DNA of 64,000 nucleotides, from NCBI GenBank assembly GCA_964016885.1, contig OZ024749.1, forward strand, positions 9,548,001 through 9,612,000, given 5' to 3'. Made by a program: the position numbers and the translations under genes. The DNA comes from Eledone cirrhosa. Its lineage: Eukaryota. Within the stretch, counting starts at the first letter, position 1, and each line of letters starts with the position of its first letter. Below, piece by piece: positions 10,926 through 58,245 of the stretch. The notes beneath the pieces are model-generated. The model did not search any database, had not been told where the DNA came from, and worked only from the letters and a program-made list of their open reading frames with translations.

Positions 10926-11511
10926 TTTTTGTAGTTGAAAATATTATGGAAACTTGACAGTCACAGCCTTTTCATCTTTTATTCTTCACCAGATTATTTC
11001 AGAAACATACTTATTTAACCATACATAATCAAAAACCAAGCTTTTTTCTTCCTGAATAATGTGGTCTATCTATCTATCTATCCACATAGCTATCTATCTA
11101 TATAGTTATCTATATATCTATTTACCTATCTATCTAGCTATCTATCTATCTATTTACCTTTCTTTCTATCTATCTATATAGCTAGCTACAAGACAGATAC
11201 TGGCCTATAGATCAAAACTTTATGCATCCAACTGACCAGCTGCATATTTCAAATTAATTCATTGCAGTTAAGCTGTCATTCAAAACTATCTCGGCTATGG
11301 CAAAATGGAATGCAATGAATGATATGAATGAGGATTATTAAGAAAAATACTGCAATGGTCATTCTTCCAGAGTAATGCATTCTTTCCTAACATTGCTACA
11401 TTATAGCAGCAAATGGCTTTCAGTTGGGTTTTCTCTCGGTTTTCAACAACTGAAAAACTTTAATTGACAACCAAGCAAATCTATTTTTCTCTTTTCTCTT
11501 CTCCTTTGCAG

Positions 11512-11547
11512 TAAAACTGTTAATCAATATGAGGAATTGGTATAAAC
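11512..11547 (+). CDS. Putative host gene micro-exon 1 (36 nt, phase 1/1): xKLLINMRNWYK
   Basis: Long pyrimidine tract ending tttgcAG, donor GTATGT; only the phase-1 frame is open, matching the next candidate exon. Confidence 0.55.
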
Positions 11548-11829
11548 GTATGTGTTTTGTTCAGCACCAACAGTACTGGAACATTATTTATATGTATGAT
11601 GGATTGTACTTTATCATTAAGAGGTTCATTGGTTAGAATGTTTATACATCTAAAACTTCTTCTAAGTTCAAATATTAAGTGTTCTCAGAAGTAGGAACGA
11701 AAAAAGATTTATCTTTCTACTGTAAACCTACCAAAACAAACTGGTAGATAATTTCTAGTTTTATTAGAACCAAGTTTGGGAGGAACTTCTAGTCATAAGG
11801 CCTCACCTGGCCTTTAGAATTGGAAACCA

Positions 11830-12480
11830 TTAAATGTGAGTTTTTTGGAAATCTCATATGACCTTTGGAGATACTTAATCATGGCTTTTGGAGACATTGT
11901 GTGGCTTTTGGCAATGTCATGTAGTCTTCGGAGACCTCATGAGGTGTTTGAATATCTCATGTGATTTTCGGAGACCTTGTGTGGACTTTGAAGGCTCTGT
12001 GTGACCTTTGAAGATCACATGTGGACTTTGGAAACTTCATGTGGTTTTTTGAAGATCTTATGTGGCCTTTCGAAACATGTGACATTTGGAGACATTCTGG
12101 CTTTTGGAGACCCCAGAAAGAGTTTAGAGAGCTTGTGTGGTCTTTGGAGTCTTGTGTGGTGTTTGAATATCTCATGTGGTCTTCGGTGGCCTTTGGAGAC
12201 TTCATGTGGCTTTTGAAGATTTTATGTGGCCTTTGGTGATTCGTGACACTTGAAGAGCTTGTGTGGTCTTTGGAGACCTCATGTGGCCTTTGGAAACCTC
12301 TGGTGGTTCCATATGACCTTGGGAGACTTCATGTGGCCTTTGAAGACCTCAAGTGGCCTTTAAAGATCTTATGTGACCTTTGGAGAGCCCATGTTGCATT
12401 TTCAAACTTCCCTGCCATTTGACGACCTCATGTAAGCCAATGAAGATCTCATCTGGCCTTTCAAGTCTATTAAGTGGGGA
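11830..12480. repeat. Diverged ~19-nt minisatellite (gtggcctttggagacctcat)
   Basis: About 30 degenerate tandem units. Confidence 0.85.
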
Positions 12481-12514
12481 TTTTGAATAAAATAAACACA
12501 TTTTCATTACATAG

Positions 12515-12560
<46 letters not shown>

Positions 12561-12576
12561 ATGTGTGTGTGTGTGT

Positions 12577-12850
12577 AAACAGAAATAACAAAGCAAATGA
12601 CACAATGAAGAAATATATTAGTTTAATGCTTGAAATAATAGGAAAAGAGTCTGAACGTTTCAGACACTAGACTTCATCAGCATGAGAAATAAAAGCTAAA
12701 ATAGAAAGATAGCTAGTGAGAAGAAGAAAGAACAGAAAAAAAAATTTGAGAAAAACTCATGTATGTATTCAATCAGCAATTTTAGACATGTACGTATGTT
12801 CTTCTGGTTTTATAATTTCACAAATTTTTGCCAATAAAGAGAGAGTCGGT
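12577..12850 (-). mobile_element. PLE stub with hammerhead motif (about 12648-12685)
   Basis: Minus strand CTGATGA-agtctagtgtct-GAAACGTT; tail runs into (CA)/(TA) array. Confidence 0.6.
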
Positions 12851-13329
12851 TTCGAACCAATGAACCTCTTAATGATAAAGTACAATCCATCATACATATA
12901 AATAATGTTCCAGTACTGTTGGTGCTGAACAGAACACATATGACACAAGACTCTCTCATTGGAATTTACACAACATCAACTAAGTAGATATCTACATACT
13001 TAACATCTATCCATTAATTATAAAATATGAATCTTATCTTTAAGAAAGATTTGGGGAAAGAAAGTCAGGTAGAGGTTAAGGGAGCACTAAACCATAATTA
13101 TGTTGTTGTTGTTTACATCTATTGAAAACATTGTTTTATTTTCTGAAATTGAAAAGTTTAAATTCTTTCAGTTTAAAATTCCTAATGTTAATCTAATTGA
13201 TAATGCAAAGGAAATATAATTATATACTTCAAGTATATACAACATGTATTTAAACTGAATGTGTACCTTATATATATATGTATATATACGTACACATATA
13301 TATATATATACGTACATATATATATATAC

Positions 13330-13360
<31 letters not shown>

Positions 13361-13650
13361 CGTACATATATATATATACGTACAAATATATATATACATA
13401 CATATTAATATATATAAATATATATACGTACATATATATATATGTGTGTGTATATAGAAATATATATATACGTACATATATATATATATGTGTATATAGA
13501 AATATATATATACGTACATATATATATATACATATTAATATATATAAATATATATACGTACATATATATGTGTGTATATATAAATATATATATGCACATA
13601 TATATATATATGTATATATATATACGTAGATGTATATATATGTGTAATAT

Positions 13651-13862
13651 ATATTTATTAAAATAACAGATTAAAGTTTAAGCAAAGAGTCGCTGCTTTC
13701 ACCCTTAACGAGAAGATCTCGTTAAGGATGAAAGCAGCGATTCTTTGCTTAAACTTTAATCTGTTATTTTAATAAATATTTGCTCTAGGGTTCTTATATA
13801 TTTGATATATATTTATCCTTATCGAGCCCTCTTTGAATTTTAGTCTTCACATTTATTATTAT

Positions 13863-17784: not shown

Positions 17785-18240
17785 TGATCTAATGAGGAAT
17801 ATGCTGATACTCCACCCTGACTATACCTTTAGATTTATACCTGTGATTATTGAGGCTCTTGGATATGTTACTAACTGTCTCAGAATAAATCTTGAGAAGC
17901 TGGGCTTCACAGAACCAGAAAGAGCATGGCTAGTTAGAAAGCTACAAATACAGTTCATTAATGGAACTGTGAAAATATGTAAAACATTTCAGAAATTCAG
18001 CATGTAAGAACTACATATACACATGTACAGACACAGTATATGCACATGTACACATATAACTCAAAGCATAGATTCCCATTCAAACAATAATATCCATACC
18101 TACACACACAGACATGAGTACATACATACGTATTTACATAGTTGATGTTGTTTAAATTCCAATGAAATTCTTGTCTCTATGTTAGAAACCGACTTTCTCT
18201 CTATTGGTGAAGATTTATGAAATAATAAAACCAAAAGGAC
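17785..18240 (+). mobile_element. RLE-type non-LTR element 3' end
   Basis: FIPVIIEALG..GTVKICKTF C-terminal motif, flanked by (CATA)n. Confidence 0.6.
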
Positions 18241-18639
18241 ATACATACCTCTTCCACTTCCTCCTAAGCATTATACTAATACTACTTTGTTTTTTGCATC
18301 TCTGTATTAGTGTTGTCATTTCTTTAACTATATATATATATCAAATGAAAAAATGGAGTTAAAGACTCATGATAATCCCCTGTAATTTAATAAGCTGAAG
18401 ATATAAGTACCAGGCTCTTCATAATATAATATATAGAGAAGAACACACATGTGCAATTCAGTTATCTAATATTTAGAAGTGCAGTCCATATCATCTTTAC
18501 ACTTGTCAATGAGCCCTGGGATGTTATGGTTCTGACACTGTTTATGGTAAAACATTCTCTTCTTTGAGTCTGTCCAGGTGTTTTATAGTTATAAAGGTGG
18601 GTTACTGCATTTTAATTTACCTTTGCAATTATTATGTAT

Positions 18640-27372: not shown

Positions 27373-27388
27373 TATATATATATATATA

Positions 27389-28687
27389 TTTATTAAAATA
27401 ACAGATTAAAGTTTAAGCAAAGAATCGCTGCTTTTTACACTGGGAGATCCTAGCTAGGGCTAGATCGTATAACGGAAATAAAAGACCATGTGACCTCTGC
27501 GCCGCTGAGGCCCTGGAAATACTCTATGCCACAGACCACATCTTAAACAAAAAATCTGAGGCAATTTCGGCTTGTAAACATAAATTGCACAAAACTTTCC
27601 TGTATTACAGCCCCACGTTATACCCTAACGGATAGTACGATCTATACGTGGATATTTTACGTCTTGATGTGGAAGCTAAGTATATGTTTTGTTTATTCCT
27701 TTACTTATTTGCATAGGTAAGTATATATTACCCGTATGTTTTGTGAAGGTATGTATACCTTCTCGTACGTATATTTGATTGCTATGGCGTATAATTTTAT
27801 ATATTCTGGTACATAGGGTTTGGCTATGTGTATACGGGAGTTTTTCGTCTGTGTGAGTATGCAGGTTCGTACGTATGGTGGGTGTGTGTATATGTGTACT
27901 TCTTGTTTTAGTTGACTTACGTCTCCGAACATTCGTGTATTTATATGTAGGTATGTGTGTGCGCTTGTTATATACGTATTTATTTATATACGTTTATATA
28001 ATTATTTATTTATTTGTATACACGCATACACACACACACATATTTATATGTGCGTGGTTTTGTATACCTATGGTAAGGTTTTGCATATGCTTGTGTATGT
28101 ACGTATTTGTTTGCGTGTATGTATTTATTTACTTTGTTCTTAACTCTGTAGTGGAGATTCATTTGGTCTCCTAGTTAGAATTTTAGTCTACGATTTCTGC
28201 TATACCATTTACGTGGTTTTGTCTTTGCCTGCTATTGTTCTCCACGCTCCACATATGACGTATTATCTTCGTTTTTTCGTTCATTGCCAGAGAACGTCTC
28301 TATGCACCACTTAAGAGAACATTAGTCTACGACCTCTTTTATACCATAAACGTGGTTCTGTCTTTGAGCGTAATAGTTTTTCACCGCTCCTATTAATGAC
28401 GTATTATTCGTTTTTTCCCCGTTCTTTGCCAGCGAACGTCACCACGAACCAAAGTATCGTCTTCCTGTCTTCCCTCGGTTGCAACGTTTTTTGAAATATC
28501 CAGTTCTGCGTTTACAGATTGACTTTGTTAGTTTCAGAAGATCCCGTTAAGGGTGAAAGCAGCGATTCTTTGCTTAAACTTTAATCTGTTATTTTAATAA
28601 ATATTTGCTCTACGGTTCTTATATATTTGATATATATTTATCCTTATCGAGCCCTCTTTGGATTTTAGTCTTCAAATTTATTATTAT

Positions 28688-35653: not shown

Positions 35654-35708
35654 TGACACTTCAAATTGGATACCATAAAGTAGCCCGGACACAGAGTCAA
35701 ATATTAAG
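35654..35708 (+). CDS. Putative host gene exon 2 (55 nt, phase 1/2): (L)TLQIGYHKVARTQSQIL(S)
   Basis: ctaat branch-like motif, ttttacAG acceptor, AAG|GTAAAA donor; single open frame, in phase with both neighbours. Confidence 0.6.
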
Positions 35709-51938: not shown

Positions 51939-52028
51939 TTTGGAAGGTCACATCCAGCAGCAAAGAGATGGCATCAAAAACACATTAAAGATATTTGAGG
52001 AACAAAAAACCAACCATTTAAATAACAT
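51939..52028 (+). CDS. Putative host gene exon 3 (90 nt, phase 2/2): LEGHIQQQRDGIKNTLKIFEEQKTNHLNN, coiled-coil-like
   Basis: ttattttcAG acceptor, GTAAGT donor; only the phase-2 frame is open. Confidence 0.65.
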
Positions 52029-54500: not shown

Positions 54501-55919
54501 GTATATATAGCGGCGATGAATTAGTTTTGCGAGGTTTTTTATATGAAATCGTGTGTCGAAACAAATATTGTTACACTTGGGGAGGGTCATATTTGTGTAA
54601 CATTGCCAGAATTAATAACAGACCACACTCACTGTTTGGTTGGTTTTCGCTTCTCGCTTCTGTGTCTTTTATATCGGTAATCTAACTTACTCGGTCCTCA
54701 ATGTTGCCATTGACTGACCGACGCTCAAAAATAATACAGACACAATATAGACACAAACACATATATATAGTTTATCATAAATCTTTCGTTGCACATCTGC
54801 AACATCGTCAGAGGTGTTATATTTTCCTCCTGTTGTATTGTATGTCTACGCCATTTTTATTCAGTCTGTCTATATATTTATTTATTTATTTGCTTGTTTG
54901 TTTATTTTATTTTGTCTTCTTTGCGCATGCGTTTGCGTGTGTGTATAGTGTTTTGTTTGCTGTGTGATGGGTGACTAGTGTGTGTTTATGTGCTTGTTGT
55001 TATTGTGTATGTATTTATTTATTTATTTATTTTATTTTACTTATTTATACTTCTATAAGGTCAGTGTTGTTTGTTTGGGTGTTGTTGTTATTCCATTCAT
55101 TCTTTTAGCCTTGGTCTTCTAATTTCTATTTCACTGGCCTCTCTGATTTGCCTATCTGCTGGGTCATTTCTATGTTTAGATATTGTTCTAATTTCTATGT
55201 TGTGTATGTTACCGTCATGTTGTTGTCTAGCATGTTCGTATAGTACTGACCCGTTTTTTCGTCCTTTTAGTTCCCCCCAGTGTTGGTCTATCCTTTCACC
55301 TATGCTACGAGCTGTCTCACCTATGTATCTTGTTCTCATGTTTCTGCAAGTACCCTCTGTACATCTTATGCTATAGACTACATTTCTAGTTTTACAGTTT
55401 ATCCGGGGGTTCACCTTACATATGATACATTTCCTATTGGTACAGTGGGTTTTCTTGAAAGGGTAGGTTTTGCTGATCAGGGATTTTATGGTGGTTCCTG
55501 GCTTTTCTACCACCTTTATTTTTAAGTGGGTCTTTCTCAGGGCCTTTCTACACTGGTTAGCTAATTTCCCTCCAGGGGTGGCGTCCACAAACATGACACT
55601 CTGGTATCTCTGGTTGTCGTACCATGAGGTGGCTTTCCCTATCTTATGCCTAGCCCTATCTAAGCTATTCCATGATTTGCTCCTGTATAATGGGCAAATT
55701 CCTTTCATGTCCAGTTCTATGAGGGTCTTATACTTTTCCATGGCTCCTTCGTATACTCTGACTCCGTCTCTTTGGTTGTAGCCAGAGAACTGCATGCGGT
55801 TGATGAAGTTTTACATCATTCATACGGATATTGTCGATGTTATCTGGGTATTTTTGAGAATATTCGATTTTCCTTTCTTGTAGTTTTTTCTTATTCATCC
55901 ATTCTAATTTCTTATTGAA

Positions 55920-58012
55920 ATGCCTATTGCATTCGTTTCGAGCGTATTTCGTTTCACGTCGGATGATGCTCATGAAATTGCACAACAAACACACGATGGG
56001 AGAGAGAAAATCCTCAACGCTCACACGATGTTGTGGACTGACATCCTAAAGCCAAGCAGACGCACTGCCAACAACTTCCAGGCGTCTAACAATGGCATAC
56101 CACCCTTGTATGGGCTCCGCAAAGACCACAAGACAGTCGACGACCCGACAACAGGACCACCAACAAGACCTGTATGTGGAGCTAATATAGCTAGCAACTA
56201 CAGGATCTCCTACTTCCTCTCAATGGTTATACGCCCCATAATCAAGATGTCCCCAGATGTATGTGACAGTACAGAGGACCTCCTCAGCAGAATCAGTGAG
56301 TGCAACAAAAACAGGAGCCTATCCAACTGCATAATAGGCAGCATGGATGTGGTGTCACTGTACCCATCCATTAACATTGATTTTGCTGTGAAAAGATGTG
56401 TGGAGATGATCATTGAGAGTAAGGTGGAGTTCTGCGACGTCGACACAGACGAACTGGGCCTCCTACTTAGACTTACCTACGACACTGACTACCTAGACAG
56501 CCATGACCTTAGATGTTTCTGCCCTAGTAGACCTATAAGAGGTAGACCCCCCACCATAACCTCAATGGCAAAAAAGACTCCCATGGGAAGGTGGATTGGG
56601 TGGACCAAAGCTATACGGACCCCCCAAAACAATGATCAGGTAAGAAAAATGGTCGCACATGCAATAGGGGCTAGTATCAAAACTACCCTAAAGGGCCACA
56701 TATTTAAGTTCAACGAGAAGATCTACACCCAAAATGAGGGAGCAGCCATCGGCGTCAGCATAGCTGGTGATGTTGCCAACCTTTTCATGGTATGGTGGGA
56801 AAGGAGACTTAAAGATCTCCTTAATGAGAGCTCCATAGACCTCATCATGTACTCTCGTTACATAGACGATATCAATATAGTTATAAGAACATCCCCACTA
56901 GAGAGCACTAACAAGTTTGATTTAGAACATAGCATGATGGAAAGTATCCAGCAGATAGCTAATTCCATACACCAGAGTATAACTGTAACTATCGACTTCC
57001 CTTCCAAACACCCTAACAATAGACTACCTGTATTAGACACAGAACTCTGGATTAACAATATAGACGAGAGAGCCCAAATTCTCCACTCACACTATGCTAA
57101 ACCCATGGCCTCCAAATACCTGATACTCAAAAACTCAGCAATGTCCAGTAGTGCTAAGTTTAATATTCTGATCGCAGATTTGGTACGAGTGATGAAGAAT
57201 GTGTCCCGCATGTGCGACCCAACAGAAATGGAAAGACACATCCAACACTTCATCAACCGCATGCAGTTCTCTGGCTACAACCAAAGAGACAGAGTCAGAG
57301 TATACGAAGGAGCCATGGAAAAGTATAAGACCCTCATAGAACTGGACATGAAAGGAATTTGCCCATTATACAGGAGCAAATCATGGAATAGCTTAGATAG
57401 GGCTAGACATAAGATAGGGAAAGCCACCTCATGGTACGACAACCAGAGATACCAGAGTGTCATGTTTGTGGACGCCACCCCTGGAGGGAAATTAGCTAAC
57501 CAGTGTAGAAAGGCCCTGAGAAAGACCCACTTAAAAATAAAGGTGGTAGAAAAGCCAGGAACCACCATAAAATCCCTGATCAGCAAAACCTACCCTTTTA
57601 AGAAAACCCACTGTACCAATAAGAAATGTATCATATGTAAGGTGAACCCCAGGATAAACTGTAAAACTAGAAACGTAGTCTATAGCATAAGATGTACAGA
57701 GGGTACTTGCAGAAACATGAGAACAAGATACATAGGTGAGACAGCTCGTAGCATAGGTGAAAGGATAGACCAACACTGGGGGGAACTAAAAGGATGAAAA
57801 AACGGGTCAGTACTATACGAACAAGCTAGACAACAACATGACGGTAACATACACAACATAGAAATTAGAACAATATCTAAACATAGAAATGACCCAGCAG
57901 ATAGGCAAATCAGAGAGGCCAGTGAAATAGAAATTAGAAGACCAAGGCTAAACAGAAAGAATGAATGGAATAACAACACCCAAACAAACAACACTGACCT
58001 AAGAGAAGTATA
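55920..58012 (+). pseudogene. PLE RT + GIY-YIG endonuclease, N-truncated, premature TGA at 57795
   Basis: LYGLRKDHK, SMDVVSLYPSI, RYIDD, CIIC, NVVY..YIGET; the inverted copy has CGA (Arg) at the stop. Confidence 0.9.
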
Positions 58013-58106
58013 AATAAGTAAAATGAAATAAATAAATAAATAAATATATAGACAGACTGAATAAAAATGGCGTAGACATACAATACAACAGGAGGAAAAT
58101 ATAACA

Positions 58107-58146
58107 CCACTGACGATGTTGCAGATGTGCAACGAAAGATTTATGA
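58107..58146 (+). ncRNA. Hammerhead motif of PLE A (mirror copy on - at about 54775-54814)
   Basis: CTGACGA-t-gttgc(agatgt)gcaac-GAAA-gatt-TA; weak stem I. Confidence 0.65.
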
Positions 58147-58245
58147 TAAACTATATATATGTGTTTGTGTCTATATTGTATCTGTATTATTTTTGAGCGT
58201 CGGTCAGTCAATGGCAACATTGAGGACCGAGTAAGTTAGATTACC

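Follow-up and report, generated by a model that had tools for sequence, protein, structure and literature searches.

The 64,000-nt window analyzed here, the whole stretch of Eledone cirrhosa DNA under study (contig OZ024749.1, positions 9,548,001 to 9,612,000), contains a pair of inverted 92-nt sequences, and the downstream member of the pair (arm 2) is probably a neutral, microhomology-mediated templated insertion produced by a one-off template switch during DNA repair or replication. On this reading, it is ordinary genome scarring of a known anatomy, with a 1.2-kb template range that goes beyond the published ones. The arms and the sequence between them are as follows:

11547–11638, plus strand: arm 1, probable template of the copy; unique intron DNA that begins at the GTATGT donor and has a colinear orthologue in organism B
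12851–12942, plus strand: arm 2, probable templated insertion in inverted orientation (81 nt net) within the 20-nt loop of the hairpin in the host element's 3' UTR
11820–12465, no strand assigned: old 20-nt minisatellite between the arms, units 60–72% alike; its start is also present in organism B (joint 11763 to 11843)

The arms are reverse complements at 89 of the 92 positions, with abrupt ends and 1,212 nt between them (self-BLAST E value 4e-39 for 11549–11638), in agreement with an earlier reading of the letters alone (hereafter, the sequence-only reading), which had reported complementarity over 92 nt at a distance of 1.2 kb. That reading was also right that two of the three differences are wobbles in plus-strand RNA (G11548:U12941 and U11557:G12932, the third being the A11635:G12854 mismatch); the chance that two transitions both give wobbles is about 1 in 4 by a hand estimate, so these pairs are no sign of selection. 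Copy number, which had been put forward as a check, argues against a dispersed repeat: a search of the 3.0-Gb genome with the 92-mer produced two matches, arm 1 and arm 2 (the absence of further matches does not prove rarity, as the search tool itself warns). Given the extent of the complementarity, the two genomic copies and the DNA 5' of arm 1, which is unique, the inverted pair is neither a chance match nor a dispersed repeat.

The element interrupted by arm 2

Arm 2 lies within a repeat for which the window itself provides an empty-site reference:

12787–12857, minus strand: left of the insert, what remains of the tail of a non-LTR retrotransposon truncated at its 5' end, together with the final stretch of its 3' UTR
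12942–12991, minus strand: continuation of the same non-LTR element up to its 5' truncation, right of the insert
18131–18248, plus strand: sister copy of this element end, with no interruption
12575–12786, minus strand: short high-copy repeat with a CTGATGA...GAAA core (3,907 candidates, ~80% identity), untouched by arm 2

In the self-comparison of the window, the sequences on either side of arm 2 align to a single unbroken stretch, 18131–18248, a high-copy repeat with 1,638 candidates in the genome. All 30 other copies that were aligned, a sample biased by having been picked by likeness to the intact copy, are continuous where the window copy carries the insert. An exact pattern scan of the genome yielded 3,912 copies with an intact site and the normal 7-nt spacing, 4 copies with small tandem duplications at the site and 26 copies with long gaps (42–250 nt); as judged from their first 80 bases, in 25 of these 26 the gap opens with a loop that is intact or nearly so, and the window copy is the only one with foreign DNA. 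The spacing of 88 nt at the window site compared to 7 nt elsewhere translates into a net insertion of 81 nt. The insert sits in the 20-nt loop of a hairpin of the host 3' UTR (predicted at about -20 kcal/mol as RNA), its site shows a 2-nt overlap only, with no target duplication and no poly(A), and the donor sequence is intact. The loop was considered as an insertion hot spot and rejected, given the single foreign insert against 3,912 intact sites.

The longer copies of the host element run into frames with reverse transcriptase (RT) and zf-RVT matches below the Pfam cut-off, end in a (TACA)n tail and contain a C-terminal RPD...E.SC motif, with a weak match to an R2 protein (E 0.83); by this motif, the element would be of the R2/R4 type. 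By these sequence features, the host of arm 2 is the 3' end of a dead, 5'-truncated, minus-strand RT/zinc-knuckle non-LTR element (12787–12991). An apparent inverted piece at the 5' truncation (12992–13014) scored 22 against a background of 20 and was not accepted.

The sequence-only reading had placed arm 2 directly against the stub of a Penelope-like element (PLE) and had suggested a template jump during PLE insertion. The abutment does not hold, because 64 nt of the non-LTR element separate the repeat at 12575–12786 from arm 2, which is located inside that element; the repeat itself is separate from, and older than, the element holding arm 2. By its core motif, this repeat is a candidate hammerhead/PLE-like sequence; an Rfam search gave no hammerhead match for it, only AT-repeat microRNA noise below the gathering scores. 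A PLE as the host of arm 2 was rejected as well, because the longer copies lead into RT plus zf-RVT frames rather than RT plus GIY-YIG. The template jump is thus retained from the earlier proposal, and the PLE is replaced by an RT/zinc-knuckle non-LTR element. Elsewhere in the window (54676–58245), nested inverted repeats (709 nt, 99%; 216 nt, 99%) surround RT and GIY-YIG-like frames, a layout that looks like a young Penelope-like insertion.

Junctions, template and age of the copy

Both junctions of arm 2 can be aligned with the empty site, which reads TTTCTAACATAGACAC, and with two short stretches of arm 1:

11632–11638, plus strand: priming microhomology, 7 nt, complementary to the left break end of the host; pairs with 12851–12857
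11549–11553, plus strand: return microhomology, TATGT (ACATA read backwards), matching the empty site of the host

Read backwards, the template starts with TTCTAAC, a 7-nt match to the left end of the host in which one base has since changed, and ends with ACATAC-G, where ACATA is a 5-nt match to the right end, followed by one extra base and then G. Within 10 kb upstream, 11632–11638 is the only inverted match of at least 6 nt to the left end; ACATA return sites are found at 11591 and 11549. Altogether, 12 of the 92 bases are microhomology common to the host repeat (net insertion, 81 nt). A plus-strand 3' end ending in TTCTAAC would first have been freed by a break or a stall within the element's hairpin loop and would then have annealed to the only matching same-strand site upstream, 11632–11638; a polymerase would have copied about 84 nt from the intron template, the new end would have rejoined the other side via ACATA(C)G against ACATAG, with one base bulged, and the CpG at the return junction would have decayed later in arm 2.

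The templated insertion is favored by the location of the insert in an otherwise colinear element, the 7-nt and 5-nt microhomologies at the junctions, and the single occurrence. Among the observations against it, base 12941 is left unexplained by the 5-nt match alone; most simply, the extra T at this position is the copied C of a CpG that later decayed. Less likely, the GT arose afterwards through an A-to-G change in arm 1. CpG decay is strong in this DNA (4 of the 4 CpGs of 11211–11763 differ in organism B; the SINE motifs of the region have CG 208 versus TG/CA 73). Another is the template 1.2 kb off, far beyond both the 100 bp of the template within which the MMB-TI search looks (Osia et al. 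2021, PMC8421209) and the 3–30 bp, with short loops, of pol theta inverted templated insertions (PMC2943611, PMC11292364). From -100,000 to -50,000 relative to the window, the CpG observed/expected ratio drops to 0.08, compared to 0.24–0.53 elsewhere in the 664 kb.

Other copies of the element provide a measure of how common such patches are. Two further scans with different gap intervals gave 63 and 14 long-gap matches, mostly GA expansions and tandem copies as judged by eye from their opening 80 bases; 7 long-gap copies were examined further, of which 4 carry DNA copied from a local template, 1 carries A/T filler and 2 represent tandem re-insertions. In one of these (L218, G000:C7:84044048-84044129), the same element contains a 23-nt direct minisatellite patch with exact sources 0.96–2.3 kb away, by its sequence a second kilobase-range templated insertion. 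Three others (L221, L222 and L224) carry duplicated pieces of their own tail and flank in inverted or direct orientation, one of them with a fold-back at the 3' UTR hairpin, and may reflect re-priming during integration.

These three copies (3 of 7) speak for an alternative whereby the copying occurred at integration: the enzyme of the element stalled in the 3' UTR hairpin, copied nearby chromosomal DNA, returned and stopped 50 nt later, again with a neutral outcome. Such copying differs from the preferred reading only in timing and enzyme, the orientation of the insert fits first-strand synthesis from the tail, and L1 does likewise in tumours (10.1101/2024.08.27.596794). However, the L1 templates reported there are within 15 bp of the insertion site, whereas here the distance is about 1.15 kb, and the loop is no hot spot, with its one foreign insert among thousands of intact sites. 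The ages are compatible (about 4 changes in 119 positions for the host element against its closest subfamily, 3 in 184 for the arms, P = 0.44), although by the point estimate the host is about twice as old as the copy. We consider copying at integration unlikely.

Within the 664 kb examined, the strict filter for two-copy local inverted duplicates yielded 2 pairs, the arm pair included, and a looser filter 13, many of which are repeat ends or TA-anchored. TA-anchored inverted copies occur several times in the region, among them 27386–27434 with 28556–28604 and a long palindrome beside AT repeats at 13650–13780 (arms of ~60 nt). A 186-nt inverted pair, 99.5% alike, lies at +133,858–134,043 and +134,910–135,095 relative to the window (L079/L080) and joins a SINE piece to what is, by its motif, a putative DNA-transposon end.

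The time of copying can be bounded by comparison with organism B, a contig of which (run X4) spans 11211–11763 with 40 differences in 553 nt (~7% divergence). The sequence-only reading had proposed to look for the pair in a sister species; arm 1 and its flanks are colinear in organism B, and the copy postdates that split. Specifically, at the 10 sites of arm 1 that differ from organism B, arm 2 has the base of its own species at 8, that of organism B at 1 and a third base at 1. The 8 of 10 sites point to copying after the split from organism B, and arm 2 keeps the base of organism B at 11557, which suggests that arm 1 changed there after the copying; by this sequence comparison, arm 2 was made after the two lineages separated. 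At 11563–11576, three of the differences form a perfect short palindrome in the orthologue of arm 1 in organism B, possibly through one template-switch event.

With the host and template of arm 2 in hand, three other accounts of the 92-mer are extremely unlikely, namely, a dispersed repeat, a terminal inverted repeat bounding a 1.4-kb transposon, and an error of assembly. In their favor, the arms are long and lie near each other, and neighboring inverted pairs resemble the ends of transposons; runs X1, X2, X4 and X5 gave no arm 2 contig, which is uncounted since contigs show presence only. Nevertheless, there are two genomic copies, arm 1 with its flanks is colinear in organism B, arm 2 cleanly splits a known element, and the base of organism B kept at 11557 is unexpected from misassembly.

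The host gene, the putative exon and the predicted duplex

The arms are located in an intron of a long gene, with the following exons and signals in the window:

11470–11511, plus strand: acceptor-like signal, 19 of 20 pyrimidines, CAG; two differences in organism B, both keeping pyrimidines
11512–11547, plus strand: putative 36-nt phase 1/1 exon, likely pseudo-exon, in a 179-kb intron; open in one frame
35654–35708, plus strand: next confirmed host-gene exon, phase 1 acceptor, 24 kb past the donor; boundaries read by eye
51939–52028, plus strand: further confirmed host-gene exon; boundaries read by eye

An exon scan of 664 kb combined with a full HMMER search identified the host gene as orthologous to LOC106867251 of Octopus bimaculoides (isoform X4, XP_052830870.1), which encodes a 244-aa coiled-coil protein; seven exons map in order on the plus strand, between roughly -185 kb and +120 kb of the window, with E values of 6e-6 or better. 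Its product gives a weak match to SYCE1 (E 3e-4, below the cut-off), and this is possibly a cephalopod synaptonemal-complex gene; searches of the ESM Atlas and PDB gave no name for the protein, and Pfam searches with 25 candidate frames gave only a DM10 exon above the cut-off. The gene extends over ~350 kb for these 244 aa (about -185,400 to +171,400 relative to the window, plus strand) and is flanked by an ankyrin-repeat gene (minus strand, ~-317 kb) and EFHC2 (minus strand, +181 to +230 kb). Also in the region, at about -241,600 to -237,800 on the minus strand, is a ~4-kb tandem repeat with a 42-nt unit that corresponds to an open, charged 14-residue repeat.

The 36-nt stretch precedes a putative GTATGT donor at 11548, and the sequence-only reading had taken it for an in-frame exon. 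The phase and the open frame were confirmed, but isoform X4, one of at least four annotated, goes straight from the exon at -143 kb to that at 35654 across the 179-kb intron, leaving the stretch out, and the donor is not kept in organism B, where it reads TTCTGT, with changes at +1 and +3 (two changes in six donor bases, P = 0.06 at the background rate). Against a pseudo-exon, the acceptor and exon differ from organism B at only 3 of 98 bases, somewhat fewer than the surroundings (P = 0.08); the exon has one amino-acid change. Unique DNA totaling 224 kb has 53 strong acceptors, 13 of them in exon-like signal pairs of equal strength. Word-based protein searches with the frame of the exon (EFHC2 as positive control) gave no match, a weak result given that a true exon of the host gene was also missed. 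Use of the exon is possible but doubtful in our estimate; the stretch is likely a pseudo-exon.

Arm 1 does end at this donor, as the sequence-only reading had stated, although not exactly at the exon/GTATGT boundary: unbroken pairing begins at intron position +2 (11549), +1 is a wobble, and the partner of the last exon base, 12942, is part of the host repeat. The arm ends at GTATGT because the ACATA of the host is the reverse complement of TATGT, so that return sites are donor-like by construction. The coincidence nonetheless counts against the template switch in DNA, as the arm end is no more than one base from this donor, whose acceptor is the strongest in the vicinity. By hand estimates, the chance of such a donor-ending is about 2e-4 to 1e-3 per event, and with several hundred events expected in the 1,315 scanned windows, 0.05–0.5 such cases would be expected. 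This is mildly surprising: it needs ascertainment to explain and leaves room for an RNA template, no more.

In the RNA-templated version, a reverse transcriptase, that of the element or pol theta, would have jumped onto the intron RNA of the locus, run to G+1 and returned. Run-off at +1 would explain the extra base 12941 as a C that was later deaminated; the host gene is on the plus strand and might be expressed in the germ line, if the sub-threshold SYCE1 match is any guide; and the insert is sense intron RNA in the orientation of the element RNA, as template switching predicts (10.1101/2025.02.02.635956). Such capture, however, requires that the putative donor be in use, against its absence from organism B and that of the exon from X4; it turns the 5-nt ACATA match into an extra coincidence, the junction may equally fall one base inside the exon, and the direct-orientation, kilobase-range patch in the sister copy L218 cannot arise in this way. 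We regard RNA capture as very unlikely. Highly improbable is the fullest version, in which the reverse transcriptase of the element, in mid-integration, jumped onto the intron RNA of the germ-line gene itself, ran off at G+1 and jumped back, leaving an antisense strand that would close off the donor of an in-frame exon just born, as a self-targeting, RNA-templated silencer of exonisation.

The long intronic duplex that the sequence-only reading had envisaged is supported by folding, with a predicted free energy of -151 kcal/mol and presence in the full-length minimum-energy fold, where donor positions +1 to +8 are fully paired. The duplex would likely form in the pre-mRNA, with the next acceptor 24 kb away giving it time to do so, yet what it covers is likely the donor of a pseudo-exon. 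A functional mask, in which selection keeps the duplex as a silencer or regulator of the 36-nt exon, or as a substrate of ADAR, would accord with the predicted stability and the full pairing of the donor, with the transcription of arm 2 long before splicing to the next true acceptor could finish, with the two transitions that both keep G-U pairs, and with the 12 residues that exon inclusion would add to the predicted coiled coil. Against it, none of the 3 differences between the arms is compensatory, one is a mismatch, and the rate of decay is compatible with neutrality; with arm 2 taken away, the prediction still has most of the donor paired (unpaired 0.01–0.06 at 11547–11552); and arm 2 is young and lineage-specific, whereas organism B, without the exon, needs no such arm. 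On these models, a selected mask seems to us very improbable.

Known systems and significance

The closest counterpart of arm 2 is MMB-TI (PMC8421209), which shares with it the inverted insertion near the template, microhomology at both junctions, the return to the original position and retention as a germ-line variant; the present case stands apart by its 1.2-kb template distance and its octopod genome. An insertion relative to an empty site, an inverted template on the same chromosome and microhomology at both junctions were all found at arm 2, which works like MMB-TI but is outside its published operational class, the template being more than 100 bp away. In snap-back SD-MMEJ (PMC2943611, PMC11292364), an inverted primer repeat confined to one flank of the break and a microhomology repeat across the break likewise give an inverted-repeat product; the 81-nt insert and the 1.2-kb loop set the present case apart from these pol theta products. 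The L1 templated insertions and LINE-RNA chimeras (10.1101/2024.08.27.596794; 10.1101/2025.02.02.635956) resemble it in placing less than 250 bp of non-element DNA in a truncated non-LTR copy in the orientation of the element RNA, whereas here the insert is internal and returns to the same point, the template is 1.15 kb off and the host is not L1. Class 2 TSIPs (PMC5110952) have an intact donor, no target duplication or poly(A), microhomology and one extra base in common with arm 2; their donors are distant, whereas here the donor is in the same intron, and arm 2 is known from one assembly. Inverted-repeat loop-out exon skipping (PMC13019027) also involves a long intronic duplex that could affect an exon, but there the arms flank the exon, whereas here both are downstream, one over the donor of a putative exon. 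Among the titles and opening lines of abstracts surveyed for lariat-templated insertions, there was no such case.

Thanks to thousands of empty-site copies of the host element, the junctions of arm 2 are fully resolved, with a template 1.2 kb off, outside the published search ranges. A caution follows for the reading of introns, namely, that an ACATA microhomology can by itself be enough to end an inverted copy at a GTATGT donor. Were the capture of RNA true, the ends of intron RNAs would be writable into their own locus, making duplexes that seal donors, in an animal rich in ADAR.
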